The notes below the pieces were generated by a model. That model did not search any database. It saw only the letters and a program-made list of their open reading frames with translations, and was not told the origin of the DNA. A program made the position numbers and the translations under genes. A stretch of 64,000 bases of DNA from Acidobacteriota bacterium (GTDB lineage Bacteria > Acidobacteriota > Thermoanaerobaculia > Multivoradales > JAGPDF01), in the NCBI GenBank assembly GCA_012521815.1, contig JAAYLR010000030.1, positions 5,434 to 69,433 on the forward strand, written 5' to 3'. The stretch's first letter is position 1. Every line of letters starts with the position of its first letter. Positions 1 through 50,609 of the stretch are shown here, one piece after another.

Positions 1-1076
1 GCTTCACGCCGATCGCCTCGAGGATCCGCGCCGCCTCCATGACGATAGCGACGCCCGCGCCGTTGTCGGTCGCGCCGGTGCCGGCGTGCCACGAGTCGAG
101 GTGGGCGCCCGCCATCACGATCTCCTCCCGGCGGTCGGTGCCGGGGATCTCGGCGAACACGTTGCCGACGGGAGCGCGGTCGGGGTGGAAGGTGGCCGCG
201 ACGTCGATCTCGATCTCCACCTCCCGCCCGGCGTCGAGGGCACGGGTGACGCGCCCGTACGGCGCTTCGGCCATCACCAGCCCCGGCACCCCGCGGCTGC
301 GCCCGGGGACGCCGCCGCCCCCGCCGCCGACCACGTAGAGGATGCCGTGCGGCCGGGTCGACTTCTCCACCGTCGCGAGCGCGCCCTCTTCGACGAGAAA
401 CCGGTTGCGCGCCTCGGAGAAATCCCACCGCTTGCGCGCCCGGGTTGCCCAGTCGCCGCCGAACCCCCAGCCGGAGATCCGGTAGGTCTCCAGGTCGGCG
501 AGCCCCTTCTCGTCGTAGCGGCGATACGGGCGCTCCTCGGCGGGATCGCGCGGCGCCGCCGGGCCGCGAACCTCCTCCGGCTCCGGGTCGATGAAGAGCA
601 CCTTCCCGCGCAGCTTCCCGCGCAGCGCCTCGAAGTCCGCCTCGCTCGCGAGCCGGCCGCGGATGGCGGGACCGCGCACGGGGCCGTCGGTGCCGACCGA
701 CCAGGCGAGCGGCAGGGCGTGGAGCGGCGCGGCGAACGGTGCGAGCGCGTGGACGCTCGTGCGGGAGAACGACCAGCCCTCTCCGAACGGGATCTCCTCC
801 TGATAGACCCGCTCGAACCCCCAGCCGCGGAACCGCTCCTCGGCCCAGGCGGTCGCCGCGATGTAGCCGGGCGAGCCGGTCAGCCGCGGCCCGACCTCCT
901 CGGTGAGCGCGGTGAGGGTCTCCATCACCTGCGAGCGACGGAGCCCCTCCTGCCGGATCCGGGTGACCATCGCATGGTCGACCGGCTCGGCCGCGAAGAG
1001 CGGCAGCGCGCCGATGAGCAAGAGAAGGAGCGGGATGAGGCCGAGACGGCGGGAGCGCGAGGCGAACAGGTTCATG
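1..1076 (-). CDS. M28 family zinc aminopeptidase, secreted; C-terminal part continues beyond the window start
   Basis: Reverse-strand translation starts MNLFASRSRRLGLIPLLLLLIGALPLFAAEP (signal peptide) from the ATG at 1074-1076. It runs without a stop to position 1 and contains peptidase M28-like segments. The antisense + ORF 86..1249 is low-complexity. Confidence 0.75.
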
Positions 1077-3279: not shown

Positions 3280-3307
3280 CGAGGCCCCCGTCTGACCGGG
3301 GGCCTCG
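3280..3307. terminator. bidirectional GC-rich hairpin terminator between convergent genes
   Basis: Perfect 11-bp inverted repeat cgaggcccccg-tctgac-cgggggcctcg. It sits between the + small gene (ends 3260) and the - DUF4332 gene (ends 3354). Confidence 0.5.
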
Positions 3308-3353
3308 TCCGTCATCGTGCCGGGGCGGACGCGGGCGCGCCCCCGGCTGCGTC

Positions 3354-3764
3354 TCAGTACTCGAGCGCGCGCGGCAGCTGCTTCGCCTCGGCCACCCACT
3401 TCGTGACCTCGGCGACGGGGGGCACGCGGCGGGTGAGCCGCTTCGCCTGCTGCACCTCGGCCATCGCGGCGGCGAGGTTCGCGGGGTTGCGCTGCGCGAG
3501 CTCGGGGACCGTGTCGACCCCGGCGGCCTCCAGCAGCTCGGAGTACTCCGGGCCGATCCCGTGGATCCGGAAGAGGTCGGCCATGTTCGCCCACTTCAGC
3601 AGCCGCGCGGCCGAGAGCCCGGCCTTCGCCGCGAGCTCCGTCCGCTGCTTCGGCGTCCTGCAGGCCGCGAGGAGCGCGTCGGTATCGCTGACTCCCGCCG
3701 CGCGCAGCTTCTCTCCGTACACCGCTCCGATCCCCTCGATCGCTTCGATCTTCATGTTGGCCAT
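3354..3764 (-). CDS. DUF4332 (helix-hairpin-helix) domain protein
   Basis: Starts MANMKIEAIEGIGAVYGEKLRAAGV, 136 aa, with a typical DUF4332 N-terminal signature. A GGAGG SD lies 6 nt upstream of the ATG at 3764. The annotated ORF 3354..4256 is over-extended upstream. Confidence 0.7.
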   Translation of the reverse strand: MANMKIEAIEGIGAVYGEKLRAAGVSDTDALLAACRTPKQRTELAAKAGLSAARLLKWANMADLFRIHGIGPEYSELLEAAGVDTVPELAQRNPANLAAAMAEVQQAKRLTRRVPPVAEVTKWVAEAKQLPRALEY

Positions 3765-3893
3765 CGGCGACCTCCTTTCGGTCCTCGGATCATAGCCGTT
3801 CGCGCTCGCTCCCGGGCTCCGGACGACGCTCGCGGCGCGGCCATCCGGCAGCCGTCTCCGATCCCGCGGCGACCGGCGATAGACTCGGCGGCG

Positions 3894-4658
3894 ATGGCGG
3901 ACGAACCCGGGATCACCGGCGCCGCGGCCGTTCTGCGCACCGCGCGGCGCGTGCTCGCGTTCACCGGCGCGGGGATCTCGGTGGCGAGCGGGATCCCGCC
4001 GTTCCGCGGCGAAGACGGCCTCTGGACGCGCTTCGACCCGTCGTCGCTCGCGCTGGACACCTTCCTCGACGACCCCGCCGCCGCCTGGCGGTTCCTGAAC
4101 GAGATCTTCTACCTCCCGCTCGCGGGAGCGGCGCCGAACCCGGCCCACCGGGCGCTCGCGTCGCTCGAGCGGGCCGGGCGCCTCGCGGCGGTCGCGACCC
4201 AGAACGTGGACGGCCTCCACCGCGCCGCCGGCAGCCGCCGGGTCCACGAGCTCCACGGCACCCTCCGGCGGCTCCGCTGCCTCGCCTGCGAGGCGGTCTC
4301 CGCCCTCGCCGACTCCGGTCTCGGCGAGCTGCCGCCGACCTGCCGCCTCTGCGGCGGGATCCTCCGCCCGGAGATCGTCTTCTTCGACGAAGGGCTCGCC
4401 GAGCCGGCGCGCAGCGACGCCTTCGCCGCGGCCGCGGGCTGCGATGCGATCCTCGTCGTCGGCACCTCGGGGGAGGTGCTGCCGGCCGGTCTCCTCCCCT
4501 GGACCGCCGCCGAGCAGGGGGCCACCGTCATCGAGATCAACACGGTTCCGTCGGCCTACACCGAACCCCTCACCGACCTCTTCCTGCAGGGCTCCGCGAC
4601 GGCGCTCCTGCCGCGCCTCGCCGCCGCCCTCGACCTCGCTCCGCCGCCGGCGGAGTGA
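3894..4658 (+). CDS. cobB: NAD-dependent protein deacetylase, Sir2 family (CobB-like)
   Basis: Sirtuin motifs are present in order: GAGISVASGIPPFRG, QNVDGLH, HG(T), and the CxxC...CxxC zinc pair (CLAC...CRLC). Start is the ATG at 3894 inside the longer ORF 3561..4658. Confidence 0.85.
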   Translation: MADEPGITGAAAVLRTARRVLAFTGAGISVASGIPPFRGEDGLWTRFDPSSLALDTFLDDPAAAWRFLNEIFYLPLAGAAPNPAHRALASLERAGRLAAVATQNVDGLHRAAGSRRVHELHGTLRRLRCLACEAVSALADSGLGELPPTCRLCGGILRPEIVFFDEGLAEPARSDAFAAAAGCDAILVVGTSGEVLPAGLLPWTAAEQGATVIEINTVPSAYTEPLTDLFLQGSATALLPRLAAALDLAPPPAE

Positions 4659-4669
4659 CCGGAGGCGCC

Positions 4670-7351
4670 ATGAGCGTCCACAACCTCGGCCGGATCTTCG
4701 ATCCGAAGCGGATCGCCCTCGTGGGCGCCTCGCCCAACCCGAACAGCGTCAGCGGCAAGGTGCTCTCGAACCTCGTCACCGGCGGCTTTCCCGGCGTCGT
4801 CTACCCCGTCCATCCGACCCAGGAGGCGGTGCTCGGGATCCCCTGCTTCCCCGACGTCGCGAGCCTGCCGCGGGTGCCCGAGCTCGCGATCGTCTGCACC
4901 CCGGCCGAACAGGTGCCGGCCGCCGTCACCGCCTGCGGCGAGGCCGGGATCCTCGGCCTGATCGTGATGTCCGCCGGCTTTCGCGAGACGGGCGAGGCGG
5001 GGCGGGCGCTCGAACAGGAGGTGCGCGCCGCGCACGCCCGCTTCCCCGGGATGCGGATCCTCGGGCCGAACTGCCTCGGGGTGATCGTCCCGCGCCGCAA
5101 CCTCAACGCCAGCTTCGGCCCCGCGATGCCGCGCGACGGCCAGATCGCCTTCCTCTCGCAGTCCGGAGCGCTCTGCACCTCGGTGCTCGACTGGGCGCGC
5201 GACGAGCGTGTCGGCTTCTCCCACTTCGTCTCGCTCGGCAACGCCCTCGACGTCGGCTTCGGCGATCTCATCGACTACTTCGGCGAGGACGAGAAGACCC
5301 GCTCGATCCTGCTCTACATCGAGTCGGTCAGCCGGGCGCGGGCGTTCATGACCGCCGCACGCGCCTTCGCCCGCACCAAGCCGATCCTCGCCTTCAAGGC
5401 CGGGCGCTTCCCGACGTCGGCCGCGGTCGCCGCCTCGCACACCGGCGCGATGGCCTCGGAGGACGCGGTCTACGACGCCGCCTTCGAACGGACCGGGATC
5501 GCCCGCGTCTTCGATCTCGGCGACGTCTTCGACTGCGCCGCGCTGGTAGGCCGCAGCCGGATGCCGCACGGCCCCCGCCTCGGCATCGTGACCAACGCCG
5601 GCGGCCCCGGCGTGGTGGCGACCGACGCCCTCGTCGCGGCCGGCGGCGAGCTCGCCACGCTCGCGCCCGCCACGCTCGCCGCGCTCGACGACTGCCTCCC
5701 GCCCGCCTGGTCGCACGGCAACCCGGTGGACGTCCTCGGCGACGCCGGCTCGCGGCGGCTCGAGAAGGCGGTCGAGGCGGTGCTCGCCGACCCCGGCGTG
5801 GACGCGCTGCTCGTGATCCTCACCCCCCAGGCGATGACCAACCCCACCGGCGCCGCGAAGGTGCTCGCGCGGCTGGCGGAGAAGAGCCCGAAGCCGGTGC
5901 TCGCCGCCTGGCTCGGCGGCCAGGCGATGCGCGAGGGGGCCGGCATCCTCGCCGAGGCCGGGGTGGCCGCCTACCAGACCCCCGAGCAGGCGGTGCGCGC
6001 CTTCATGACCCTCGTCGCCTACGCCCGCAACCTCGAGATCCTCTACGAGACGCCGAAGGACGTGGCGATCGAGCTCCCGTTCGACCGCGCCGAGGCGAAG
6101 CGCGCCTTCGTCGCCCGCGCGATCGCCGGCGCCGGCACCCTCTCCGAGGAGAGCTCGAAAGAGCTCCTCCACGCCTACGGGATCCCGGTCGTGCGCGCGC
6201 GGCCGGCGGCCGACGCCGCGGCGGCGGTGGCGCTCGCCGAGGAGCTCGGCTACCCGGTGGTGCTCAAGATCCACTCCCCCGACATCACCCACAAGACCGA
6301 CGTCGGCGGCGTCGCCCTCGACCTGGGCAGCGCGGAGATGGTCACCGCCGCCTTCGATCAGATCGTGCGCAACGCCCGCGAGCGGCGGCCGGAGGCGCGC
6401 CTCGCGGGAGTGACCGTGCAGCGGATGGTGCAGGCGCGCGACGGGGTGGAGCTGATCCTCGGCGTGAAGCGCGACGCGGTCTTCGGCACGGTGATGATGG
6501 CCGGCATGGGCGGGATCGGCGCCGAGCTGCTCGGCGAGCGCAGCCTCGGCTTCCCGCCCCTCAACGAGCGGCTCGCGCGCCGGATGCTCGAGAAGCTCCG
6601 GCTCTGGCCGCTCCTCGCCGGCTACCGGGGCCGGCCGCCGGTCGATCTCGACCGGCTCGTCGCGGTGCTCATCCGCCTCTCCTACCTCGCCGCCGACTAC
6701 CCGGAGATCGCCGAGCTCGACATCAACCCGCTGCTCGTGAGCCCCGGCGAGGTGATCGCGCTCGACGCCCGGGTGGTGCTCGATCGCGCCCCCGACGGCG
6801 CGCTCGACGAGGCGTACCCGCACCTCGTCCTCCGCCCCTACCCCGAGCGGCTGGTCCGGCGGGCGGTGCTGCGCGACGGCACGCCGGTGACGCTGCGGCC
6901 GATCAAGCCCGAGGACGAACCGCTCTGGCACGCGATGCTCGCGAGCTGCTCGCGCGAGTCGCTCTACTCGCGCTTCCGCTCGCACTACAACTGGGCGACC
7001 CACGAGGCCGCGACCCGGCACTGCTACATCGACTACGCGCGGGAGATCGCGATCGTCGCCGAGGTCGAGGAGCGGAGCGAGCGGCGGCTCGTCGGGGTCG
7101 GGCGGCTGATCGCCGACCCCGGGCACGAGGAGGCCGAGTACGCGGTGCTGGTGATCGACGCCTTCCAGAACCGCGAGCTCGGCTCGCTGCTCACCGACAC
7201 CTGCATCGAGGTCGCCCGTGGCTGGCAGTTGCGGCGGCTGGTGGCCGAGACCGACACCACGAACCGGGCGATGATCGCGGTCTTCGCGAAGCGGGGTTTC
7301 GAGATCCGCACCGGCGAGGACTCGACCGTCGAGGTCTCGCTCCCGCTCTGA
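4670..7351 (+). CDS. pat: protein lysine acetyltransferase Pat (acetyl-CoA synthetase (ADP-forming)-like domains + C-terminal GNAT)
   Basis: 893 aa. The N-terminus has a CoA-binding / succinyl-CoA-synthetase-like fold (VGASPNPNSVSGKV..., ATP-grasp) and the C-terminal ~200 aa is GNAT. GGAGG precedes the ATG at 4670. An alternative GTG at 4655 overlaps the cobB stop (GTGA). Confidence 0.85.
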   Translation: MSVHNLGRIFDPKRIALVGASPNPNSVSGKVLSNLVTGGFPGVVYPVHPTQEAVLGIPCFPDVASLPRVPELAIVCTPAEQVPAAVTACGEAGILGLIVMSAGFRETGEAGRALEQEVRAAHARFPGMRILGPNCLGVIVPRRNLNASFGPAMPRDGQIAFLSQSGALCTSVLDWARDERVGFSHFVSLGNALDVGFGDLIDYFGEDEKTRSILLYIESVSRARAFMTAARAFARTKPILAFKAGRFPTSAAVAASHTGAMASEDAVYDAAFERTGIARVFDLGDVFDCAALVGRSRMPHGPRLGIVTNAGGPGVVATDALVAAGGELATLAPATLAALDDCLPPAWSHGNPVDVLGDAGSRRLEKAVEAVLADPGVDALLVILTPQAMTNPTGAAKVLARLAEKSPKPVLAAWLGGQAMREGAGILAEAGVAAYQTPEQAVRAFMTLVAYARNLEILYETPKDVAIELPFDRAEAKRAFVARAIAGAGTLSEESSKELLHAYGIPVVRARPAADAAAAVALAEELGYPVVLKIHSPDITHKTDVGGVALDLGSAEMVTAAFDQIVRNARERRPEARLAGVTVQRMVQARDGVELILGVKRDAVFGTVMMAGMGGIGAELLGERSLGFPPLNERLARRMLEKLRLWPLLAGYRGRPPVDLDRLVAVLIRLSYLAADYPEIAELDINPLLVSPGEVIALDARVVLDRAPDGALDEAYPHLVLRPYPERLVRRAVLRDGTPVTLRPIKPEDEPLWHAMLASCSRESLYSRFRSHYNWATHEAATRHCYIDYAREIAIVAEVEERSERRLVGVGRLIADPGHEEAEYAVLVIDAFQNRELGSLLTDTCIEVARGWQLRRLVAETDTTNRAMIAVFAKRGFEIRTGEDSTVEVSLPL

Positions 7352-7377
7352 ACGCCCGGTTCCCGGAGGATGCCGCC

Positions 7378-8532
7378 ATGAACCCTCGCCTCGCCGCCGC
7401 CGCCCTCGCCCTCTCGCTGCTGCCGCTCCCCGGCGCGGCCACCGCCGGTCCCGTGCCGGCCGCGGCGCCGCCCGCGCTCGCGGAGGTGCGCGCGGCGATG
7501 GGGATCCCCTCCGCGGACGACATGCGCGGGCAGCGCGACACCGTCGGCTTCGCCTCGACCGCCGCGCAGATGGCGCGCGTCTGGGAGCTCGCGGGGAGCC
7601 CGCCCGCCCCGGAGAGGTTCGGCTCCCGCCCCGCGCCCGGCGTCGCCGGGGTGATCGCGCCGCACGACGACTACCTCTACTCCGGCCGCGTCGCCCGCGA
7701 GACGCTCTCGCTCCTGACCGCACGCACGGTGGTGCTCGTCGGCGTCTTCCACAAGTACCGGGCCTTCGGAGCGCGCGACCAGCTCGTCTTCGATCCGTAC
7801 CGCGCCTGGCGGGCGCCCGACGGCGAGATCCCGGTCGCCGCGCTCCGCGAGGAGCTCCTCGCGGCGCTCCCCGCCGGCTTCGCGGTGCAGGACGCGGCGA
7901 TGCACGACGCCGAGCACTCGCTCGAGTCGCTCGCCTACTGGTTGCGCCACGCGCGGCCCGATCTGGAGATCGTGCCGATCCTCGTGCCCGCGGCCTCCTT
8001 CCCCCGGCTCGAAGCGCTCGGCGCCGCGCTCGGGCGGGCGCTCGCCGAGGCGATGACCCGGCACGGCTGGCGTCTCGGCCGCGACGTGGCGATCGCGATC
8101 TCGGCCGACGCCGTGCACTACGGCGACGACTTCGCCCACGTTCCGTTCGGCGCGGGAGGGATCGAAACCTACCGGCAGGCGGTCGCGCGCGATCTCGCGC
8201 TCCTCCGCGGTCCCCTCGCGGGCCCGGTCGACAGCGCGGCGGCGCACGCGCTCTTCGCGACCTTCGTCGACCCGGAAGCCCCCGATCAGTACCGCCTCCC
8301 CTGGTGCGGCCGCTTCTCGATCCCGCTCGGGATGCTCGCGCTCGCCGAGACCGCCCGCGCCCTCGGCCTGCCCCCCCTCGAATCCCGTCCGCTCGCCTAC
8401 GCCACCTCGGTCGGCCAGCCCGAGCTGCCGGTGCGCGAGATCGGCCTCGGCGCCACCGCCCCCGCGAACCTCTACCATTTCGTCGGCCAGCCGGGGGTGG
8501 CGTTCGTGCTCCCCGCCGCCCCGGAGCCGTAG
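7378..8532 (+). CDS. MEMO1 / AmmeMemoRadiSam-system protein B family protein with signal peptide
   Basis: N-terminal signal MNPRLAAAALALSLLPLPGAATA, then the Memo-like motif GVIAPHDDYLYSG, with histidines conserved through the ORF. Confidence 0.65.
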   Translation: MNPRLAAAALALSLLPLPGAATAGPVPAAAPPALAEVRAAMGIPSADDMRGQRDTVGFASTAAQMARVWELAGSPPAPERFGSRPAPGVAGVIAPHDDYLYSGRVARETLSLLTARTVVLVGVFHKYRAFGARDQLVFDPYRAWRAPDGEIPVAALREELLAALPAGFAVQDAAMHDAEHSLESLAYWLRHARPDLEIVPILVPAASFPRLEALGAALGRALAEAMTRHGWRLGRDVAIAISADAVHYGDDFAHVPFGAGGIETYRQAVARDLALLRGPLAGPVDSAAAHALFATFVDPEAPDQYRLPWCGRFSIPLGMLALAETARALGLPPLESRPLAYATSVGQPELPVREIGLGATAPANLYHFVGQPGVAFVLPAAPEP

Positions 8533-8547
8533 CCGCGCCGGCGGCGC

Positions 8548-9165
8548 TCAGGAGCGTTCGAGGAGCGCGAGCAGCTTCTCGCCGTTCACCCCGGCAGGGA
8601 GTCTCTCGGCGAAGCCGAGGAGGGCGGCGAGGCGGGCGGCGAGCTGACGCTCGGCCTCCCGGAGCGCCAGCTTCGCCTGCGCGAGCCGCTCCTTCGCCGG
8701 ACGCATCCACTGCTCCTGGAACTCCTTGCCGGAGAGGGTGCCGTCGCGGATCCGCTGCCGGCCCTCGCGGCGGATCGTGTCGAGATGCCGGCTCGCCGCC
8801 GCGGCCTCCAGAGCGATCGGCGCCGTCTCCCATCGCCACCCCGTGTGCACCGCCACCACCTCGCCCCGCTTCGCGAGCGCGCGCCGCACGAGCTCCACCC
8901 CCGCCGCGACGAGCGCGGCCACCTCGCGCTCGCCATCCGCGGTGAGGCTCCCGTCCTCCGCCCACCGCTTCCGGGAGAGCGCGAAATAGGGGATGTGCGA
9001 GCTCGCGAGGCGCAGCGGCCATGGCCGCTCGATCTCGACACCGAGATCGGACGCGCAGGCGCGCACCCTGCCCTCCACCTCCAGCTCACCGACCTGCTGC
9101 CGCAGCGCTACCTCCACCCACTCCGGTCCTCCGGAACCGTTCTCACGCGCTTCGTTCGCCGCCAT
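8548..9165 (-). CDS. hypothetical protein (205 aa)
   Basis: Clean ORF with an AGGAGG SD 6 nt upstream of the ATG at 9165. Third positions are GC-biased. I recognise no domain. Confidence 0.55.
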   Translation of the reverse strand: MAANEARENGSGGPEWVEVALRQQVGELEVEGRVRACASDLGVEIERPWPLRLASSHIPYFALSRKRWAEDGSLTADGEREVAALVAAGVELVRRALAKRGEVVAVHTGWRWETAPIALEAAAASRHLDTIRREGRQRIRDGTLSGKEFQEQWMRPAKERLAQAKLALREAERQLAARLAALLGFAERLPAGVNGEKLLALLERS

Positions 9166-9205
9166 CGCCCACCTCCTTCCGCCCCCGAATCCTCCACCTC
9201 GCCGT

Positions 9206-9220
9206 TGACAGAACCTGTCA
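9206..9220. promoter_or_regulatory. 15-bp perfect palindrome TGACAGaacCTGTCA (candidate operator) with TTGACA hexamer, in 5' region of the 8548..9165 gene
   Basis: tgacag-aac-ctgtca read directly at 9206-9220, 41-55 nt upstream of the start codon at 9165. TTGACA sits at 9205-9210 on the + strand. Confidence 0.25.
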
Positions 9221-9503
9221 GCGAGCCGGGATGGAGACGGCTGCTGATCCGCAGCCGATGCCGCGGCTTCCCCCCACGGTGGTCTGCCGCGGAGGTGGGG
9301 ACGAGATCGCGGGCGCGGGAGCCGTGGCGGGTGCGGAGGAGGCGGGCGGGATGGGCGAACGGCGAGCTGCTCCAGGGCGGTGAGCCAGCTCTCGCGGGCG
9401 CGCCCTGCGGCTCGCTCGCCGGCCTGCGCCGGGGCGGATACACCCCGTCCCCGCGCCGCGGAGGAGCTCCGGGCGCGACCTCCGCGGGCGGGGGGGGTAT
9501 CTG

Positions 9504-9992
9504 CTAGCTGCTGGCCAGCAGGCGCTGACGGGTGTACGGGATGAGGCCGCCGGCGTCGATGATCGCCTGCCGGGCCGGGGGAAGCGGCACGGTGGCGAAG
9601 CGCTTGCCGGTGGTCTGGTTGAGGATGCTCCCGCTCTCGAGCACGAGCTCGTCTCCCTCGTCCGCCTCCAGCTCCGGCGCGGTGACGAGCGAGAGGCCGA
9701 GGTTGATCGCGTTCTGCAGGAAGATGCGGGCGAAGCCGCGCGCCACGATCGTCAGCTCGTGCCCGCGCAGGCAGGAGGCCGCCTGCTCGCGCGAGGAGCC
9801 GCAGCCGAAGTTCTTCCCGCCGACGATCGCCGCGCCCTTGCCGGCGCCCGACTTGAGCAGCGCGTTGAGCTCCGGCGCGTCGGCGAAGGCGAACTGCGGG
9901 GTCTCGGTGGGGAGCACGGTCGCCATGAAGCGGCCGGGGTAGATGACGTCGGTCGAGATGTCGTCGCCGACCTTCGCGATGACCTTGAGCAT
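9504..9992 (-). CDS. leuD: 3-isopropylmalate dehydratase / aconitase-family small subunit (LeuD-like, short archaeal type)
   Basis: 162 aa, MLKVIAKVGDDISTDVIYPGRF...GKNFGCGSSREQA, typical LeuD swivel domain. GGGAG SD. Start is 2 nt after the leuC stop. Confidence 0.85.
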   Translation of the reverse strand: MLKVIAKVGDDISTDVIYPGRFMATVLPTETPQFAFADAPELNALLKSGAGKGAAIVGGKNFGCGSSREQAASCLRGHELTIVARGFARIFLQNAINLGLSLVTAPELEADEGDELVLESGSILNQTTGKRFATVPLPPARQAIIDAGGLIPYTRQRLLASS

Positions 9993-9994
9993 GA

Positions 9995-11284
9995 TCAGGC
10001 TCCCTGACGGGGGTCGGTGATGACCCCGGTGATCGCCGAGGCGGCGGCGACTTCGGGCGAGCAGAGGTAGACCTCCGTCTTCGGGTTCCCCATCCGCCCC
10101 TTGAAGTTCCGGTTCGTGGTCGAGAGCGCGACCTCGTGGTCGCCGAGCGCGCCCTGGTGGATGCCGAGGCAGGGGCCGCAGCCGGAGTTCATGACCACCG
10201 CGCCCGCCTTCATCAGCGTCGCGACGTAGCCGGCTTCGAGCGCCTCCTGGTAGATCCGGCCGGAGGCCGGGAAGACGAGCATCCGCGTCTCCCGCGCCAC
10301 CTTCTTGCCTTCGAGGATCCGCGCCGCGGCGGCGATGTCGTCGAGCCGCCCGTTCGTGCACGAACCGATGACGATCTGGTGGACCTTCGTCCCCGCCACC
10401 GCGTCGATCGGCTTGACGTTGTCGACGGTGTGGGGGCAGGCGATCTGCGGCGCGAGCCGGGAGACGTCGACGTGCACCGTGCGCTCGTAGACGGCGTCGG
10501 GATCGGGGCCCACGAGCTCGAGCTCGTCCTCCACCCCGGCGACCTCGCGCAGGTAGCGGACCGTCTCCTCGTCGGCGGGGACGATCCCCGAGGTCGCGCC
10601 GGCCTCGACGGTCATGTTGCAGATCGTGAGCCGTCCGGAGGTCGGCATCCTCCGGATCGTCTCGCCGCCGAACTCGATCACCCGGAAGTTCGCCCCCTCG
10701 GCGCCGAGCAGCCCGACGAGGTGGAGGATCAGGTCCTTCGCGCCGACCTCCGGCGGGAACTCGCCCGTCACCTCGACCCGGATCGTCGGCGGCACCTCGA
10801 TGTTGAGGGCGACACCGAGCGTCCAGACCGAGGCCATCTCGGTCGCGCCGATCCCGAAGGCGAAGGCGCCGAGCGCGCCGTGGCTGGTGGTGTGGGAGTC
10901 GGTGCCCACGACCACCGCGCCGGGGCGCACGTAGCCGTTTTCGGGCAGGATCTGGTGGCAGATCCCCCCCTCGTCGCCGCGGATGTCATGGAACCGCCCG
11001 ATCCCGTGCAGCCCGACGAACTCCCGGACCTTCTTCTGGTTGCTCGCCGTCTTGGCCGACTCGGCCGGCACCCGGTGGTCGAAGATGATGGCGAGGCGCG
11101 ACGGATCCCAGATCCGCGGCTCGCGCCCGGTCCCTTCGAAGACGGCGTGGAACTGATTGACGACCAGCGCCGCGTTCTCGTGCGACATCGCGAGATCGAC
11201 GCGCGGCTCCAGCACCTCGCCCACCCGCACGCTTTCGCGCCCCGCGGCGCGGGCAAGGATCTTCTCGACAACGGTCATGCCCAT
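9995..11284 (-). CDS. leuC: 3-isopropylmalate dehydratase / homoaconitase large subunit (LeuC-like)
   Basis: 429 aa aconitase catalytic domain with VGTDSHTTSHGALGAFAFGIG and the Fe-S cysteines (SCTNGR, GCGPCLG). AGGAGA SD upstream of the ATG at 11284. Confidence 0.85.
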   Translation of the reverse strand: MGMTVVEKILARAAGRESVRVGEVLEPRVDLAMSHENAALVVNQFHAVFEGTGREPRIWDPSRLAIIFDHRVPAESAKTASNQKKVREFVGLHGIGRFHDIRGDEGGICHQILPENGYVRPGAVVVGTDSHTTSHGALGAFAFGIGATEMASVWTLGVALNIEVPPTIRVEVTGEFPPEVGAKDLILHLVGLLGAEGANFRVIEFGGETIRRMPTSGRLTICNMTVEAGATSGIVPADEETVRYLREVAGVEDELELVGPDPDAVYERTVHVDVSRLAPQIACPHTVDNVKPIDAVAGTKVHQIVIGSCTNGRLDDIAAAARILEGKKVARETRMLVFPASGRIYQEALEAGYVATLMKAGAVVMNSGCGPCLGIHQGALGDHEVALSTTNRNFKGRMGNPKTEVYLCSPEVAAASAITGVITDPRQGA

Positions 11285-11364
11285 CTCAGTTCGTCTCCTA
11301 TCCTGCGGTCGTTACCCGATCCACGAGATAACCGCACGCACGCAACGTTCTTTCCGCCTCTCTC

Positions 11365-12561
11365 TCAGACGACGCCCTGCGCGCGGAGGTCGGCGATCTC
11401 GGCCGCGCTCAGGCCGAGGCCGCCGAGCACTTCGTCGGTGTGCTGGCCGAGCTTCGGCGGCGGCGCGGTGATCGCGCCCGGCGAGTCGGAGAGCTTGGCG
11501 GTCATGTTGAAGAGCTTCACCTCCCCGATCTCGTCGTCCACCCGCACCGAGGTGAGCGTCCGCCGGTGTTCGACCTGCGGCTGGGAGAGCGCCTCGGCGA
11601 GCGAGAGGATCGCGCCGGAGGGCACGTCCTTGGCGTTGAGCGCCTCGACCCAGTGGGCCGTCGGCCGCTCGGCGAGCTTCGCCTCGAGCAGCGGCGTGAG
11701 CGCCTTGCGGTTCTTCTTCCGCTCGTCGCGCTCCTGGAAGCGGGGGTCGCTCTTCAGCTCGGGCAGCTCGAGCACCTCGGTGACCGCCTCCCACTGCTCC
11801 TGCTTGTTCGCGGCGATGTTGATGAAGCCGTCGCCGGTGCGGAAGACGCCCGAGGGCGCGGCGGTGAAGTTGTCGTTGCCCATCGGCACCGGGCCCTTGC
11901 CGCCGATCAGCAGGTTCGCCGCCACCCAGCCCATCAGCGGCATGATCGAGTCGAGCAGCGCGACGTCGATCGCCTGCCCCCGGCCGGTGCGCTCGCGGTG
12001 GAAGAGCGCCGCCATGATCGCGAAGGCGGCGTTGAGCCCGCCCACCGTGTCGCAGACCGGGAAGCCGGCGCGCAGCGGATGGAGCCGCTCGTCGCCGTTG
12101 ACGTCCATCTCCCCGGAGAGCCCCTGGATGATCTGGTCGTAGGCGGGCTTGGCGGCATCCGGGCCGTCCTTGCCGAAGCCGGAGATCCCGCAGTAGACGA
12201 GCCGCGGGTTGATCTCGGCGAGCGCCTCGTAGCCGAGGCCGAGCCGGGGCATGACGTCGGGGCGGAAGTTCTCCACCACCACGTCCGCGCCGGCCACCAG
12301 CCGCCGGAAGAGCTCCTTGCCCGCCGGCGCCTTGAGGTTGAGGGTGAGCGACTTCTTGTTCGCGTTCTGGGCGAGGAAGCTCGTGCCCATCAGCTGCTTG
12401 TTGTACGCGGGCACGTTGCCGAGCACCCGCGCGAGATCTCCCGCCTTCGGGTTCTCCACCTTCACCACCTCGGCGCCGAGCAGCGCGAGGTGGAGGGTGC
12501 AGAACGGCCCCGAGAGGACGTTGGTCAGATCGAGGACTCGAATGCCATCGAGGACGCCCAT
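11365..12561 (-). CDS. family III CoA-transferase (CaiB/BaiF family)
   Basis: 398 aa, MGVLDGIRVLDLTNVLSGPFCTLHLALLGAEVVKVE is the family hallmark. GGGAGGGAG SD. Start overlaps the upstream gene's stop region. Confidence 0.85.
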   Translation of the reverse strand: MGVLDGIRVLDLTNVLSGPFCTLHLALLGAEVVKVENPKAGDLARVLGNVPAYNKQLMGTSFLAQNANKKSLTLNLKAPAGKELFRRLVAGADVVVENFRPDVMPRLGLGYEALAEINPRLVYCGISGFGKDGPDAAKPAYDQIIQGLSGEMDVNGDERLHPLRAGFPVCDTVGGLNAAFAIMAALFHRERTGRGQAIDVALLDSIMPLMGWVAANLLIGGKGPVPMGNDNFTAAPSGVFRTGDGFINIAANKQEQWEAVTEVLELPELKSDPRFQERDERKKNRKALTPLLEAKLAERPTAHWVEALNAKDVPSGAILSLAEALSQPQVEHRRTLTSVRVDDEIGEVKLFNMTAKLSDSPGAITAPPPKLGQHTDEVLGGLGLSAAEIADLRAQGVV

Positions 12562-12563
12562 CT

Positions 12564-13493
12564 TCAGCTCCCTCCCGCCGCGGCGGCCGGCTCCGGGATC
12601 GGGCCGGCGCGATAGACGTTGCCCGGCATCTCGCGGCCGCAGCAGGCGGCCACCTCGCGCGCCACGTCGAGCAGCACCGCGAGATCGATCTCGCGGCGCT
12701 CGCCGCCGCGCTGCAGGGCGTGCACGAGATCCTCGGTGCAGGTGTTCCCGCCGGCCACCGCGGTGAACGGGCAGCCGCCGAGACCGGCCACCGAGGCCTC
12801 GAAGTGGGTGACCCCGGCCCGCCGCGCGGCGTAGCAGTTGGCGAGCGCGAGGCCGTAGGTGTCGTGGAAGTGACAGGCGCAGTCGATCCCCGGCGCGAGC
12901 GCGAAGACCGCCTCGTAGAGCGCCTCGACGGCGTCCGGGGTGCCGTGGCCGGCGGTGTCGGCGAGGCTCAGGTTGCGCAGCCCCGCGTCGAGGAACGAGC
13001 GGACGATGCCGAGCACCCGCTCGCGCGGCACCGGCCCCTCGTACCCGCAGCCGAAGGCCGACTGCACGGAGACCTGCACCCGCTTGCCCGCCGCCGCGGC
13101 CGCCTGCGCCATGGCGATGATCCGGCCGGTCGCGTCGGCGATGCTCATGCCGGTGTTCTTCCGGCTGTGCGTCTCGCTCGCCGAGACCCCCATGCAGAAC
13201 ATCTCGACGCCGCACTCGAGCCCCCGCTCCAGCCCCTTCTCGTTGAGCACCAGCCCCGAGAGGGTCGCGGACGCGGGCTTGCGCCCCGGCTGCGTGAAGT
13301 GCTGAAAAAGCTCGGCGGTGTCGGCCATCTGCGGCACCCGGTCGGGGCGCACGAACGAGCCGAGCTGGAGGATGTCGACGCCGCTGGCGAGCAGCCGCTC
13401 GCCCCAGGCGATCTTCTGCGCCGTGGGCACGACCTGCTTCTCCATCTGCAGGCCGTCGCGCAGTCCGACCTCGTGCAGGACGATCTGGCTCAC
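12564..13493 (-). CDS. HMG-CoA lyase-like (HMGL family; possibly citramalyl-CoA lyase) protein
   Basis: 309 aa TIM-barrel HMGL-like: VGLRDGLQ near the N-terminus and the conserved H.H metal site (CACHFHDTYG). GTG start at 13493 with GGAGG 6 nt upstream. Confidence 0.8.
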   Translation of the reverse strand: MSQIVLHEVGLRDGLQMEKQVVPTAQKIAWGERLLASGVDILQLGSFVRPDRVPQMADTAELFQHFTQPGRKPASATLSGLVLNEKGLERGLECGVEMFCMGVSASETHSRKNTGMSIADATGRIIAMAQAAAAAGKRVQVSVQSAFGCGYEGPVPRERVLGIVRSFLDAGLRNLSLADTAGHGTPDAVEALYEAVFALAPGIDCACHFHDTYGLALANCYAARRAGVTHFEASVAGLGGCPFTAVAGGNTCTEDLVHALQRGGERREIDLAVLLDVAREVAACCGREMPGNVYRAGPIPEPAAAAGGS

Positions 13494-13506
13494 GGAACGC
13501 CTCCGT

Positions 13507-14625
13507 TCAGAGCTTCGCCGCGATGGCGCGGCCGAGATCGAGGGTGGTGGCGCTGCCGCCCATGTCGTAGGTGCGGACCTGCCCCTCGGCGATCACCGCC
13601 GCGGTCGCCGCCTCGATCCGGCCCGCCATCTCCGTCTCGCCGAGCCAGTCGAGCATCATCTTCGCGGCGAGGATGGTGGCGATCGGGTTGACCTTGTACA
13701 TCCCCGCGTACTTCGGCGCCGAGCCGTGCGAGGGCTCGAAGACGCCGAGCTTCGTGCCGATGTTGCCCGAGCAGCCGAAGCCGAGGCCGCCGACCATCTG
13801 CGCCGCGAGGTCGGAGATGATGTCGCCGTAGAGGTTCGGCGCCACGAGCACCTCGTAGGAGAGCGGGTTCTTCAGCAGCCACATGCAGATCGCGTCGATG
13901 TTCGCGTCGTCGCAGGCGATCTCCGGGTAGTCGGCGGCGACCTTGCGGGCCATCTCGAGGAAGAGCCCGTCGGTGGCGCGCACCACGTTCGCCTTGTGGA
14001 TGATCGTCACCTTCTTGCGGCCGTGCTTGCGGGCGTACTCGAACGCCGCCCGTGCGATCCGCTCCGAGCCGTGGCGGGTGTTGATCTTGCACGAGATCGC
14101 GTACTCGTCGAGGGCGCGGCCGGCGAACGGCTTGAACGCCGGGGCGTTGCGGCCGAGCACCTCGGCCACCTCGGCCGGCACCGGCGAGAACTCGACGCCG
14201 GCGTAGAGGTCCTCGGTGTTCTCGCGGAAGACCACGAGGTCGATCCCCTCGCGCAGGTTGAGCGGGTTGCCCGGATACGCCTTGCAGGGGCGCAGGCAGG
14301 TGTAGAGATCGAACAGCTGCCGCATCCGCACGATCGGCGAGCGGTACTTCAGCCCCTTGCCCTGCAGCTCGGGGACGAGCTCGGCCTCGGCGGTCTTCGC
14401 CGGCTTCGAGGTGATGGCGCCGAACATCGCGGCGTCGACGCGGCCGAGCAGGTCCACGGTGCGCTGCGGGAAGGCGTCTCCCTCCCGGCACCAGAACTCC
14501 CAGCCGATGTCACCATGTTCGTAGTCGGCCCGGAAGCCGACGGCGTCGAGCACGAGGCGGGTCGCTTCGAGGACTTCGATGCCGATTCCATCTCCGGGCA
14601 GCCAGGCGATCTTGTAGCTCTTCAT
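13507..14625 (-). CDS. isocitrate/isopropylmalate dehydrogenase family protein (LeuB-/tartrate-DH-like)
   Basis: 372 aa from the ATG at 14625 (MKSYKIAWLPGDGIGIEV...NLYGDIISDLAAQMVGGLG). This is a beta-decarboxylating dehydrogenase signature. The ORF 13507..14790 is over-extended. Confidence 0.85.
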   Translation of the reverse strand: MKSYKIAWLPGDGIGIEVLEATRLVLDAVGFRADYEHGDIGWEFWCREGDAFPQRTVDLLGRVDAAMFGAITSKPAKTAEAELVPELQGKGLKYRSPIVRMRQLFDLYTCLRPCKAYPGNPLNLREGIDLVVFRENTEDLYAGVEFSPVPAEVAEVLGRNAPAFKPFAGRALDEYAISCKINTRHGSERIARAAFEYARKHGRKKVTIIHKANVVRATDGLFLEMARKVAADYPEIACDDANIDAICMWLLKNPLSYEVLVAPNLYGDIISDLAAQMVGGLGFGCSGNIGTKLGVFEPSHGSAPKYAGMYKVNPIATILAAKMMLDWLGETEMAGRIEAATAAVIAEGQVRTYDMGGSATTLDLGRAIAAKL

Positions 14626-29587: not shown

Positions 29588-31354
29588 ATGCCCGCCATGA
29601 GCTTCCGCGCCTCCGTCCGCCGCCTCTCCTTCGCGTTCCTGCTCCTCCTGCTCGGAGGCCCGGTCGCGCGCCTCTCGCCCCTGCCGGCGCAGACCGGCGA
29701 GGGGACGTACGGCTCGTTCCTCGATCAGATCGAGGTCGAGGTCGTGGAGGTGGACCTGCTCGTCTCCGGCCGGGACGGCCGGCCGCTCCGTGATCTCCGG
29801 CGCGAGGAGTTCACGCTCCTCGTCGACGGCGAGCCGGTCGAGATCCGCTACTTCGCCGCGCCGTCCCCCGAGCCCGGCGCGAGTGCCGCGGCGGAGCCCG
29901 GTGCAGAGGCCGAGGGCGAGCAGCCCGACGCCGAGCCGGCGATCGTCGTCGCCTACCTGGACGAGACCGCGATCCGGCCCGGGCCGCGCAACCAGCTCCT
30001 CGAGGCGTTCGGCCGCGTTCTCTCCAGACGCCTGGCCGCCGGCGACCGGGTGATGGTGGCGCGCTTCGACGAGGGCCTCCGCCTCCTGACCGAGCTGACC
30101 ACCGACGAGGAGGTCGTCCGGAGCGCGCTCGCCCAGGCGGCGAAACGCGCCCCGGCGAGCCTCGTCGCCCAGATGGAGGAGGGCGCGCTGCTGCAGGAGC
30201 TCGAGAGCAGCGGCGGGGGCGGGGGTGGCGGCGGCGGGGGCGGCGCGCTCCGGAACGACGACGAAGAGATGGAGGCGATGCGGCTCCGGGTCGAGGTCGA
30301 GTCGCGGGCTTCCGCCGACGCCGACCGGCAGCGCCGCGCGACGGCGGCCCTCGCCGACCTCGTCGGCGCGCTCGGCGGTCTGCCCGGGCGCAAGACGGTG
30401 CTCCTCGGCAGCGGCGGCTTCCTCACCCGGCCCGGCGCCCGCCTCGGCGACATCTGGCAGCAGCGCTTCGCCGAATTCGACTCCGGCGGCGCGCTGCCGG
30501 GACACGAGTTCGACGCCGAGGCGGGCGGGCTGCAGCACGCCTTCTCCCGCCTCCTGCGCACCGCCCAAGCGACGCGCGTCACCTTCGTCACGATCGAGGC
30601 CGGCGACGCCGCCAGCGGCCTGCCCGACGCCTCCTTCGGCGGCGGCCTCGCGGCAGCGAGTTCCCTCGCCGCGAGTACCGCCGGCCTCGAAGCAAGCGGC
30701 AACCTCGGCGTTCTCGCCGCGGCCACCGGGGGCCGGCGGTTGAAGCTCGAGCCCCGGATCGCCGAGGCGCTCTCCCGGGTCGGAGACGATCTCGACGCCC
30801 GCTACTCGCTCGGCTTTCCGACCGGTCCCGAGGCGGGCACGCGCTTCCACCGGATCGAGGTCCGGGTCGCGCGGGAGGGCGTGCGGGTCGAGCACCGGGA
30901 AGGGTTCCGCCGGCGCGCGGGCGCCGACCGCGCCGTCGACGCGCTCCTCGCCACCGCCGCGCTCGGCGGCACCGAGAACCCGATGGGGGTCACGGTGACG
31001 ACCGGGACCCCGCAGCGCGCCGGCCGCGGCCGGTACTCGCTCGTGCCGGTGGAGGTGAAGGTGCCGCTGCGCGCCGTCACCCTGCTCCCGGAGGGGAACG
31101 CCCAGCGAGGGCGGCTCAGCTTCTCCTTCGCGCTGCGCGACCCGAGCGACCGGCTCGTCCAGCTCGAGCCGCGGCCGCTCACCTTCACGGTGCCCAACGC
31201 GGAGCTCGCCGCCGCGCTGCGCCAGACGATCTCGATGCACGTCGAGATCCCGGTCGCGAGCGGACCTCACCGCCTCGCGATCGGAATCCACGACGAGATC
31301 GGCGACGCCCGCTCCTCTCTCGCCGTCCCGTTCGACCTGCCGCCGGTCCGATGA
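29588..31354 (+). CDS. VWA domain protein of the 'VWFA-related Acidobacterial domain' type, secreted
   Basis: Signal peptide, then IEVEVVEVDLLVSGRDGRPLRDLRREEFTLLVDGEPVEIRYF, the characteristic N-terminal block of that family. Central poly-Gly (11 G). Alternative ATG at 29597. Confidence 0.75.
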   Translation: MPAMSFRASVRRLSFAFLLLLLGGPVARLSPLPAQTGEGTYGSFLDQIEVEVVEVDLLVSGRDGRPLRDLRREEFTLLVDGEPVEIRYFAAPSPEPGASAAAEPGAEAEGEQPDAEPAIVVAYLDETAIRPGPRNQLLEAFGRVLSRRLAAGDRVMVARFDEGLRLLTELTTDEEVVRSALAQAAKRAPASLVAQMEEGALLQELESSGGGGGGGGGGGALRNDDEEMEAMRLRVEVESRASADADRQRRATAALADLVGALGGLPGRKTVLLGSGGFLTRPGARLGDIWQQRFAEFDSGGALPGHEFDAEAGGLQHAFSRLLRTAQATRVTFVTIEAGDAASGLPDASFGGGLAAASSLAASTAGLEASGNLGVLAAATGGRRLKLEPRIAEALSRVGDDLDARYSLGFPTGPEAGTRFHRIEVRVAREGVRVEHREGFRRRAGADRAVDALLATAALGGTENPMGVTVTTGTPQRAGRGRYSLVPVEVKVPLRAVTLLPEGNAQRGRLSFSFALRDPSDRLVQLEPRPLTFTVPNAELAAALRQTISMHVEIPVASGPHRLAIGIHDEIGDARSSLAVPFDLPPVR

Positions 31355-35587: not shown

Positions 35588-36508
35588 TCAGAAGAGCGGA
35601 CCCGGCCCGAGGAGCAGCCCCCAGAGCGGGAGGGTCAGGAGGGAGACGAGAACCCCGAATCCGGCGAGCGCCGCGGCGAGCTCCGGCGCGAGCCGGTGCA
35701 GGCTCGCCAGGGCGGCGGCGGTGACCATCGGCGGCATCGCGCTCTCCAGCACCGCCGCCGCCGCCGGCAGCGGTGCGAGCCCGAGGGGCCGCACGAGGAG
35801 CAGGGCGAACGCCGGCAGGACGACGAGCTTGAGCAGGAGCCCCGCCGCGAGGGGTGCCCGCACCGTCCGCGGCAGCCGGAGCCGGAGCTGGAGCCCCAGC
35901 GCGAACGCCACCACCGGCAGGAGCGCTCCCGCGAGCTGGTCGAGCAGGCTGGCGACGACCGGCGGCGGGTCCGCCGGCATCAGCGTGAGCGCGAAGAGCA
36001 GCGCCGGAAACGGCGGGAAGCGGAGCAGCCGCCGGAGGAGCGCCCGCGCCGAGAGCGGTTCGCCGCCGCCGTAGCGGGCGAGCACCCAGAACCCCCACGT
36101 CGTGAGGAGGATGAACGAGCCGAACTGGTCGTACGCCACCGCGTACGGCAGGGCGTCGCGGCCGAGCAGCGCCGCGGTGAGCGGGTAGCCGAGGAACGAG
36201 GTGTTGCCGAGCGGCGCGCAGAGCAGCAGCACCGCCCGCTCGGCCGGCGCCAGCCGCAGCGCCCGGGCCACGAGGTGGACGAGCCCGGCGGTGGCGAGCA
36301 GGAGGAGCCACGGGATCGCCACGAGCCCGAGCAGGGACGGCTCGGGCCGCAGCCCCGCGGCGTGGCGCAGCACGGCGGCGGGCAGGCAGACGTAGAGGAC
36401 GAAGAGGTTGAGCGCGTCGGCCCCGGCGGCCGGGAAGGCGCCGAGCCGCGCCGTGAGCTTGCCGGCGGCGAAGAGGCAGAGGATGAGGACGAAGGCGTCG
36501 AGTGCCAT
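35588..36508 (-). CDS. AEC (auxin efflux carrier) family transporter
   Basis: 306 aa, about 10 predicted TM helices, typical AEC family layout. It lies 18 nt downstream of the decarboxylase gene on the same strand. Confidence 0.8.
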   Translation of the reverse strand: MALDAFVLILCLFAAGKLTARLGAFPAAGADALNLFVLYVCLPAAVLRHAAGLRPEPSLLGLVAIPWLLLLATAGLVHLVARALRLAPAERAVLLLCAPLGNTSFLGYPLTAALLGRDALPYAVAYDQFGSFILLTTWGFWVLARYGGGEPLSARALLRRLLRFPPFPALLFALTLMPADPPPVVASLLDQLAGALLPVVAFALGLQLRLRLPRTVRAPLAAGLLLKLVVLPAFALLLVRPLGLAPLPAAAAVLESAMPPMVTAAALASLHRLAPELAAALAGFGVLVSLLTLPLWGLLLGPGPLF

Positions 36509-36526
36509 GGACGGCGGCGCGAAACC

Positions 36527-38002: not shown

Positions 38003-38076
38003 CTCAGCCTCCCCCGCGGGCGCTCGCACCCGCCTGCTCGGGATCATCTCACCGCTGCCCGCGTTCACATCGCCCA

Positions 38077-38116
38077 CCAGAAACGAGACGGGGCGGGCCA
38101 GCCGGCCCGCCCCGTC
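38077..38116 (-). terminator. intrinsic terminator downstream of OPT transporter gene
   Basis: Perfect 13-bp GC stem gacggggcgggcc-agcc-ggcccgccccgtc at 38087-38116. On the minus strand it is followed by UCUCGUUUCU. Confidence 0.55.
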
Positions 38117-38139
38117 GCATCGGCAGCGCCGGTCGCGGC

Positions 38140-44214: not shown

Positions 44215-44256
44215 CGGCCGGCGAGGCCGGGGCCCTCCGGTCCGGGAACCGCCGTC

Positions 44257-50517: not shown

Positions 50518-50609
50518 ACGCCGCGCCGGGCAGCCGGCGGCGGCCGGGTGGTATCCTGCGCCCGGTTCGAGTGTCGTTTCGCCGGATCCCGAAAGACAGG
50601 AGGTCTCCC

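Follow-up and report, generated by a model that had tools for sequence, protein, structure and literature searches.

A 64,000-nt stretch of DNA from an Acidobacteriota bacterium (contig JAAYLR010000030.1; this whole stretch is called the window below) carries, side by side on its + strand, a gene for a CobB-type sirtuin (cobB) and a gene for a protein acetyltransferase of the Pat type (pat), followed by a gene for a secreted Memo-like protein. It is probable that cobB and pat form one transcription unit encoding both halves of a reversible lysine-acetylation switch. An earlier note, made from the sequence alone, had proposed both the adjacency of the two genes and their co-transcription. The adjacency is borne out, the Pfam and NCBIfam assignments agreeing on a sirtuin and a Pat-type acetyltransferase separated by 11 nt. 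Co-transcription is most likely, in view of the tight packing of the genes and of a consensus scan that finds neither a terminator nor a promoter between them. Moreover, the recurrence of the pair in relatives and in another phylum supports functional coupling more than adjacency alone does.

At the G+C content of the window (about 74%), bare open reading frames (ORFs) are uninformative. Genes were therefore called from third-position GC per frame, which together with the ORF lists gives three consecutive genes on the + strand, cobB, pat and the Memo-like gene (Table 1). Because a GGAGG motif in the cobB-pat spacer precedes ATG 4670 and because homologues align from that Met, ATG 4670 is taken as the start of pat; the N-terminus MSVHNLGRIFDPKRIAL can be aligned from its first residue to 23 homologues and to E. 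coli PatZ. The GTG at position 4655, put forward in the earlier note as an alternative start, does overlap the cobB stop (GTGA), but ATG 4670 is the better supported of the two: the five residues that GTG would add have no counterpart in any homologue, and this start was rejected. A scan of positions 3300-9300 for sigma-70 promoters and intrinsic terminators gave no terminator-like or promoter-like consensus between the three genes. Its sole terminator-like match (3738-3750) lies inside the DUF4332 gene, upstream of cobB. No sigma-70 promoter was found anywhere in the scanned region, including upstream of cobB, and the consensus may not fit acidobacterial promoters. The 11-nt gap is in itself too short for an intrinsic terminator. 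Finally, the cobB, pat and Memo-like proteins are found verbatim, under consecutive GenBank accessions, in several Thermoanaerobaculia metagenome-assembled genomes (MAGs; e.g., HPA95767, HPA95768, HPA95769), so that the adjacency is no assembly oddity of the window.

The cobB product matches SIR2 (PF02146) with an E-value of 1.8e-44 and 152 bits (cut-off 24) and exceeds the threshold of NF001753 (251.4 bits, cut-off 243); with 254 bits it remains under the cut-off of the equivalog NF040867 (320). The closest solved structure is that of Sir2-Af2 from A. fulgidus (1ma3, E 5e-54), with which the HG motif and both CxxC pairs align. Judged by domain and catalytic residues, CobB is predicted to be an NAD+-dependent sirtuin protein deacylase. 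The Tyr/Arg pair aligned in Sir2-Af1 is replaced by L and I in the window protein, which suggests a deacetylase rather than a desuccinylase.

The Pfam domains of the pat product, CoA_binding, Succ_CoA_lig, Ligase_CoA_2, ATP-grasp_5 and GNAT, are those of the type I Pat architecture. The protein is 38% identical to E. coli PatZ from end to end (PDB 9isq and 9it0, E ~1e-170). In PatZ, E809 is a catalytic residue, the mutation of which lowers PatZ activity (bioRxiv 10.1101/2024.11.12.623305). The GNAT catalytic residue is present in the window Pat: E823, which does not vary among 24 homologues, occupies the place of PatZ E809, and PatZ R754 is conserved as R768. The lack of GNAT catalytic residues, named in the earlier note as a ground for refutation, is thus not observed.

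Relatives of the locus were examined in three ways: by individual look-up of the nearest ones, by a Pat-alignment scan of one genome per GTDB species, and by clustering of flanking ORFs. The matches listed in the GTDB scan comprise 80 Pat loci from many phyla (56-71% identity). At least 1 kb downstream of pat is available in 75 of them, so that the denominator is sound. The window's own lineage is not among the listed matches, and closer relatives were fetched one by one; all frequencies thus describe samples, not censuses. In two of these relatives, L086 and L171, cobB precedes pat as in the window (Table 1), within different surroundings. L086 has a hydrolase gene upstream and a 348-aa gene and a molybdopterin oxidoreductase gene downstream; L171 has TsaE upstream and a convergent UvrD gene downstream.

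Among the 80 listed Pat loci, tblastn located cobB in 12 (11 full-length plus the partial L055), in each case immediately downstream of pat and on its strand, at a distance of 34-206 nt. All 12 are Bacteroidota-type loci (Prolixibacteraceae, Draconibacterium, Maribellus, Mariniphaga, Bacteroidales), and their gene order is the reverse of that in the window. The commonest neighbor of pat in the listed loci, as found by clustering of flanking ORFs, is a same-strand upstream gene for an AMP-forming acetyl-CoA synthetase (acs). Its product reaches 961 bits against TIGR02188 (cut-off 725) and has the motif PKTRSGKIMRR, which includes the lysine acetylated in Salmonella Acs. A gene for an SfMCT-type monocarboxylate transporter of the MFS type often stands between acs and pat. 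An upstream acs is present in nine of the 12 cobB-linked loci, with the arrangement acs-transporter-pat-cobB in six and acs-pat-cobB in three. In the six, the genes for uptake, activation, writing and erasing thus stand side by side. About ten further loci have acs(-transporter)-pat without cobB, and acs lies directly upstream of pat in about 19 Bacteroidota loci overall. This association supports the view that the GNAT domain of Pat could acetylate a lysine of AMP-forming Acs. Since acs is linked to pat(-cobB) in Bacteroidota, Acs is likely to be the target of the switch.

The sirtuins were compared with an outgroup of 80 listed metagenome matches to the window CobB (38-49% identity), which share the TQNVDGLH pattern. 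In a neighbor-joining (NJ) tree of 94 sirtuins, 14 Pat-linked and 80 metagenomic, the Pat-linked CobBs all group in a single clade (bootstrap 158/200, 79%), within which the Bacteroidota subclade is found in 200/200 replicates. Because the pair recurs with changed flanks and in a second phylum, and because the Pat-linked CobBs are monophyletic, we argue that the cobB-pat linkage has been selected and that one CobB lineage would travel with this Pat family. In the literature searched, no description was found of a pat-cobB operon or of acs-transporter-pat-cobB clusters, absence there being no proof.

Several points weigh against a selected, co-transcribed switch. An internal promoter is conceivable, as acidobacterial promoters may fall outside the consensus used for the scan, and co-transcription is deduced from the sequence. 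Most Pat relatives are without cobB: none lies within 10 kb in 68 of the 80 listed Pat loci, nor in L088 and L089 (Pat 72-73%) or L172 (Pat 69%) among the closer relatives. The linkage is therefore lineage-specific. Seen from the side of the sirtuins, a full Pat stands next door in 0 of the 80 listed loci, only 34 of which have at least 1.5 kb on both sides. Pat trees do not unite the cobB-linked loci, the Bacteroidota Pats being the most distant from the window Pat (57-58%). Among the roughly 40 genes scanned in the 64-kb window, there is neither acs nor another known Pat target; acs may be located elsewhere in the genome. Lastly, Pat retains synthetase motifs, discussed below, which raise the possibility that acetyl transfer to Acs is not its sole or main activity.

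In the mechanism that we propose, the GNAT domain of Pat would move the acetyl group from acetyl-CoA to a lysine of a target enzyme, most probably the active-site lysine of AMP-forming Acs, and CobB would strip this group with NAD+. One mRNA would yield both enzymes, and the ribosome-binding site right after the cobB stop would permit translational coupling. With the writer/eraser ratio fixed in this way, the switch would be set by metabolites, not by differential transcription. Pat would respond to acetyl-CoA and CobB to NAD+/nicotinamide; ATP/ADP/Pi might act as well, via the N-terminal module of Pat. In this species, the Memo-like gene would be read through from the cobB-pat promoter. The data establish what the genes are, their catalytic residues and spacing, the conservation of the pair and its linkage to acs in Bacteroidota; co-transcription, the identity of the target and metabolite control of the switch are what we infer from them. 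In Salmonella, pat, cobB and acs are unlinked and co-regulated by a single regulator, IolR (PMC8603916, PMC4513076).

Salmonella Pat or E. coli PatZ (YfiQ) and CobB represent the same two families as in the window and act on Acs. The domain order of the enteric Pat (CoA-binding, ligase-CoA, ATP-grasp, GNAT) is that of the window Pat, and the enteric CobB likewise is a sirtuin with the catalytic His and the Zn site. However, the window CobB is nearer the archaeal Sir2-Af2 than E. coli CobB, and the GNAT P-loop reads Q-N-R-E-L-G in the window Pat instead of K-G-L-G-L-G. The enteric genes are unlinked, as stated in the earlier note: E. coli patZ is located between tapT and pssA with no cobB nearby, whereas 11 nt separate the two genes in the window. 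A writer and an eraser that share a transcription unit have their established precedent in acuABC of B. subtilis, located beside acsA, where the acetyltransferase AcuA and the deacetylase AcuC control Acs from one operon (PMC8556138). The proteins nevertheless differ: AcuA is a small single-domain GNAT, AcuC a Zn-dependent, HDAC-type enzyme, whereas the window has a multidomain Pat and a sirtuin, and the two pairs are not homologous beyond the GNAT fold. In addition, acs adjoins acuABC, whereas none is found in the window. The Bacteroidota acs-transporter-pat-cobB clusters share with the window the His-retaining family of Pat (57-59% identity), the clade of CobB (42-47%) and a layout on one strand with short gaps; but there pat precedes cobB, and acs and the transporter gene are included.

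The earlier note had assigned the pat product to the "classic" Pat/CobB switch. On this point it has to be corrected, because the window protein retains the histidine loop and other motifs of ADP-forming acyl-CoA synthetases (ACDs) that are lost in E. coli PatZ. The synthetase-like N-terminal domain of SePat/PatZ lacks the critical histidine, which is held to preclude acetyl-CoA synthesis (PMC3195501), and a review generalizes the absence of the catalytic His from the synthetase domain to GNATs of type I and of type II (PMC8556138). In the PatZ cryo-EM paper, the N-terminal domain is described as incapable of catalysis, yet it binds acetyl-CoA, ATP, and phosphate. The window Pat departs from this picture of a type I GNAT with a dead, His-less synthetase domain. 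It has H257, in SHTGA, and keeps five other ACD motifs besides. In the pairwise alignment, PatZ shows a 4-residue deletion exactly opposite AASHTGAMAS and an 8-residue deletion opposite AGFRETGEAG of the window protein. The corresponding sites of 8wzu, an ADP-forming 4-hydroxybutyrate-CoA ligase, read AMSHTGALMG and AGFKEVDEEG. H257, H541, GPNCLG, SQSGA, NAGGPG, and GMGG are all as in 8wzu. More broadly, the N-terminal 700 residues of Pat align over their full length with ADP-forming ACDs from Ca. Korarchaeum (ACD1, 4xyl) and Nitrosopumilus (8wzu, 429 bits), with the phosphohistidine loop, H541 and the nucleotide/phosphate motifs intact; compared with these enzymes, the window Pat adds a C-terminal GNAT domain.

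This form of Pat is widespread. H257 does not vary among 24 homologues and occurs in each of 84 related loci. A HMMER search of 1.84 billion cluster representatives (50% identity) gave 47,887 matches, the best 150 of which (P0281-P0430) were inspected. GNAT is present in 115 of these 150; the His is kept in 82 of the 115 and missing in 33. The His-retaining form is therefore common and no exception. It appears to be the majority Pat-like form outside enterics, and, judged by these sequences, the statement of the review on type I GNATs seems true only of a minority, the enteric enzymes among them. His-retaining Pats are 57-74% identical across Gemmatimonadota, Zixibacteria, Ignavibacteria, Bacteroidota, Cloacimonadota, Aminicenantes, and others, and the NCBI name of some members is [quoted passage not shown] As a separate observation, loci of Gemmatimonadales and Ignavibacteria have, directly beside pat and on its strand, a GNAT-less ACD-like gene that is 31-37% identical to the N-terminal part of Pat (Table 1).

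It can be asked whether Pat is bifunctional, its GNAT domain being joined to a working ADP-forming acetyl-CoA synthetase (acetyl-CoA + ADP + Pi <-> acetate + ATP + CoA). The GNAT domain would then use or sense the same acetyl-CoA pool, or acetylate the synthetase itself, with CobB as the resetting enzyme, and the operon would be an energy-metabolism unit with acetylation feedback instead of a pure regulatory switch. At GPNCLG, SQSGA, AGFRE, SHTGA (H257), NAGGPG, and GMGG, the window Pat equals or nearly equals 8wzu, and PatZ is degenerate or deleted at all of them; together with the retention of the His in homologues and with the NCBI naming, this argues for catalysis. So does the extent of conservation over many, mostly anaerobic phyla, unusual for a purely regulatory domain. 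The score against TIGR02717 (acetate-CoA ligase alpha) can be read both ways, since 498.9 bits is substantial but below the equivalog cut-off of 567.15; NF045493 (503.7 vs. 1300 bits) and NF045494 (426 vs. 1200 bits) are likewise not reached. Moreover, no biochemistry on any His-retaining Pat, nor a description of such a Pat, was found in the literature searched. The separate GNAT-less ACD beside pat in L006, L042, L046, L060, and L066 would be partly redundant if Pat itself were an active ACD. Finally, as PatZ binds acetyl-CoA, ATP, and phosphate without catalysis, ligand motifs can persist for allostery. On balance, we consider an active synthetase domain possible, while leaning toward the regulatory switch. 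The more far-reaching version, in which the His-retaining Pat would be truly bifunctional, acetylation would be coupled to acetate/ATP/acetyl-CoA turnover and a dedicated CobB clade would be co-inherited as the reset enzyme, at times clustered with acs and a monocarboxylate transporter gene, is a tentative proposal that we hold to be less likely than not.

The third gene of the row encodes a protein that matches PF01875 (Memo; E 4.3e-15, 56 bits, cut-off 27) and TIGR04336 (76.3 bits, cut-off 26), the matches covering only the central part of the profiles (positions ~35-190 of ~270). An AlphaFold model built from 38 sequences has a pLDDT of 92. Its best fold match in the PDB is human MEMO1 (Foldseek E 8e-15, TM 0.73-0.75 on the target); LigB-type extradiol dioxygenases come next. 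In a profile alignment, PHDDYLY(A/S)G, GVFH, EHSLE, and SADAVHYG fall on PHAGYTYCG, GPSH, EHSIE, and SSDFCHWG of MEMO1. H96, H125, D244, H247, and C310, invariant in the family, correspond to the MEMO1-type His/His/Asp/His/Cys metal site. Fold and metal residues are therefore those of MEMO1, but identity is only 16%, and at its N-terminus the window protein is longer by about 90 residues, a cleavable signal peptide among them. The signal peptide claimed in the earlier note is a family-wide trait: the N-terminus is hydrophobic in 114 of 120 homologues (P0001-P0120), and a cleavage site, typically of the AQA type, separates it from a conserved mature N-terminus, as judged by a heuristic and not by a dedicated predictor. 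By its predicted structure, the protein is a genuine Memo-fold metalloprotein that would be exported. Its family has more than 1000 matches at 60-83% identity, and all source names that bear a taxon are Acidobacteriota. No description of a secreted Memo protein was found in the literature searched, by an unspecific search.

The same note had remarked that the usual AMMECR1 and radical-SAM partners of AmmeMemoRadiSam B are missing. No such gene was indeed found among the ~40 genes of the window or in five related loci (L001-L005), but for an exported subfamily this is expected and the word "missing" is out of place. As the window covers 64 kb, such genes may be present in the rest of the genome. 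An AmmeMemoRadiSam B protein would be expected in the cytoplasm, where it could meet a radical-SAM partner; the Memo-like protein, with its N-terminal signal peptide, is predicted not to be there. Because it would be exported, a cytoplasmic radical-SAM/AMMECR1 partnership is implausible. The signal peptide and the lack of partner genes suggest that, of the public names "AmmeMemoRadiSam system protein B" and "MEMO1 family protein," the system name is probably an over-annotation for this subfamily.

The Memo-like gene is on the same strand as pat, has its own GGAGG motif, and follows after 26 nt (7352-7377; the earlier figure of 27 nt is one too many), with no terminator-like site in between; several MAGs from this species cluster also have the trio side by side. 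In the light of this arrangement, the gene is probably co-transcribed with cobB-pat in this organism, and one may imagine a functional three-gene system in which the Memo-like protein would be a partner or a target of the switch. Comparative context largely refutes this idea, which we regard as very unlikely. The gene does not accompany the pair in L086, where an unrelated 348-aa gene follows, or in L171, where the convergent UvrD gene does, and no Memo-like gene lies within 10 kb in any of the 80 listed Pat loci. Conversely, homologues at 60-72% identity in five relatives occur in unrelated contexts without cobB or pat. A conserved neighbor was sought in these relatives and none was found, the adjoining genes in four of them being, respectively, those of an alcohol dehydrogenase, an amine oxidase, Fur and an aromatic lyase. 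In the acidobacterial MAG GCA_016213675.1, the Memo-like gene and pat are on separate contigs. Furthermore, the Memo-like protein would be exported, whereas CobB and Pat have no signal peptides. The gene follows pat only in this species cluster and looks like a passenger, with nothing pointing to a function shared with cobB and pat. Independently, a dienelactone-hydrolase gene stands a few genes away from the Memo-like gene in two of the five contexts (L001, L002).

That cobB and pat adjoin by mere chance, without selective value, would agree with most examined Pat and sirtuin loci being unlinked, but is the least probable explanation of all, as the pair survives changes in both flanks with CobB down to 56% identity, the order pat->cobB occurs as a second arrangement in another phylum, beside the target gene acs, the Pat-linked CobBs are monophyletic, and chance adjacency is expected in about 1 in 1000 genomes (a rough estimate, from one or two sirtuins and a few thousand genes).

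Table 1. Features of the cobB-pat region of the window and of related loci (coordinates of related loci are their own).
Feature	Position	Strand	Remarks
DUF4332 gene	3354-3764	-	divergent from cobB
Intergenic region, presumed operon promoter region	3765-3893	+	from gene layout only
cobB, NAD+-dependent sirtuin protein deacetylase (putative), 254 aa	3894-4658	+	ATG 3894, TGA 4656-4658
CobB catalytic His121 in ELHGT	codon at 4254	+	aligned to 1ma3
CobB Zn site C129-x-x-C132, C150-x-x-C153	within 3894-4658	+	aligned to 1ma3
GGAGG ribosome-binding site for pat	4661-4665	+	in 11-nt cobB-pat spacer; read from the sequence
pat, Pat/PatZ-type protein, 893 aa	4670-7351	+	ATG 4670, TGA 7349-7351
Pat ADP-forming acyl-CoA synthetase-like module	aa ~1-705	+	fused to C-terminal GNAT
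Pat His257 in AASHTGAMAS	codon 5438-5440	+	phosphohistidine position of ADP-forming acyl-CoA synthetases
Pat ATP-grasp subdomain, aa 487-704	6128-6781	+	PF13549, 8e-84
Pat His541 in SPDITHKTDVGGV (SPDITHK)	codon at 6290	+	second His, as in 8wzu
Pat GNAT domain, aa 740-878	6887-7303	+	PF00583, PF13302
Pat catalytic Glu823	codon 7136-7138	+	aligns with PatZ E809
Window Pat motifs			GPNCLG, SQSGA, SHTGA, NAGGPG, GMGG
E. coli PatZ motifs, same positions			GPNSLG, SQSAA, TTAG-, NGAAPA, GEGG
GGAGG ribosome-binding site for Memo-like gene	7366-7370	+	in 26-nt gap 7352-7377
Memo-like secreted metalloprotein (predicted), 384 aa	7378-8532	+	ATG 7378
Memo-like signal peptide, aa 1-23	7378-7446	+	hydrophobicity and cleavage-motif heuristic
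Imperfect inverted repeat	8501-8556		24-nt arms, 71% complementary; covers stops of Memo-like and convergent genes
Gene without family	8548-9165	-	convergent to Memo-like gene
L086			Pat 89%, CobB 75% identity; SIR2 -> Pat, 18-nt gap
L171			Pat 74%, CobB 56% identity; SIR2 -> Pat, 31-nt gap
acs-transporter-pat-cobB loci L058, L068, L074, L080, L081, L084		same strand	Prolixibacteraceae, Draconibacterium, Maribellus, Mariniphaga
L074	acs 6469-8388; transporter 8451-9782; pat 10001-12709; cobB 12738-13484		
GNAT-less ACD paralogues	L006 7726-9093; L042 12727-14823; L046 2776-4875; L060 3479-4387; L066 4631-5335		

The inverted repeat that covers the stops of the Memo-like gene and of its convergent neighbor is a possible end of the transcription unit, the evidence being weak and the terminator non-consensus. 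Beyond it, a cluster convergent to the cobB-pat-Memo unit (9504-14553, - strand) encodes aconitase-family small and large subunits, a family III CoA-transferase, an HMGL-like lyase, and an isopropylmalate/isocitrate dehydrogenase-family enzyme. Another post-translational metabolic switch, the second in the window, is located at 48799-51911, where an isocitrate dehydrogenase gene comes immediately after aceK (isocitrate dehydrogenase kinase/phosphatase, with both Pfam domains). Between 14903 and 28184, genes on the same strand encode a 1703-aa protein without Pfam match, a 1937-aa bacterial alpha-2-macroglobulin (A2M), and a PBP1C-type bifunctional penicillin-binding protein; the pairing A2M-PBP1C is a known one, here with the giant 1703-aa gene in front. 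Large genes with a strong coding signal and no Pfam family are found at 29588-33336 and 40366-45681 (588, 661, and 1282 aa on the + strand, 474 aa on the - strand). At 35588-40200 (- strand), a pyridoxal-dependent decarboxylase gene lies between those of an OPT-family oligopeptide transporter and an auxin-efflux-type membrane transporter, possibly an amino-acid decarboxylation/export unit.

For bacterial metabolic control by acetylation, the reference model is the Pat/CobB system of reversible lysine acetylation, knowledge of which is almost all enteric. The present advance is incremental in two respects. The regulatory logic is already known from Salmonella co-regulation and acuABC, what is new being the Pat/CobB gene arrangement and the form of Pat. 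The components are known as well, NCBI annotation already hints at bifunctionality, and the operon will not surprise a specialist. The model is nevertheless extended, to a writer and an eraser in one putative operon in an acidobacterial lineage, to Bacteroidota that cluster both with the target gene and a transporter gene, and to a form of Pat that keeps a complete synthetase active site. The linkage gives a genomic argument for Acs as the target, and it raises the question of how co-expressed opposing enzymes avoid a futile cycle. It also yields a testable hypothesis on the function of the 700-residue domain of Pat. If Pat is truly bifunctional, the generalization that type I GNATs have an inactive sensor as their large domain would be overturned.

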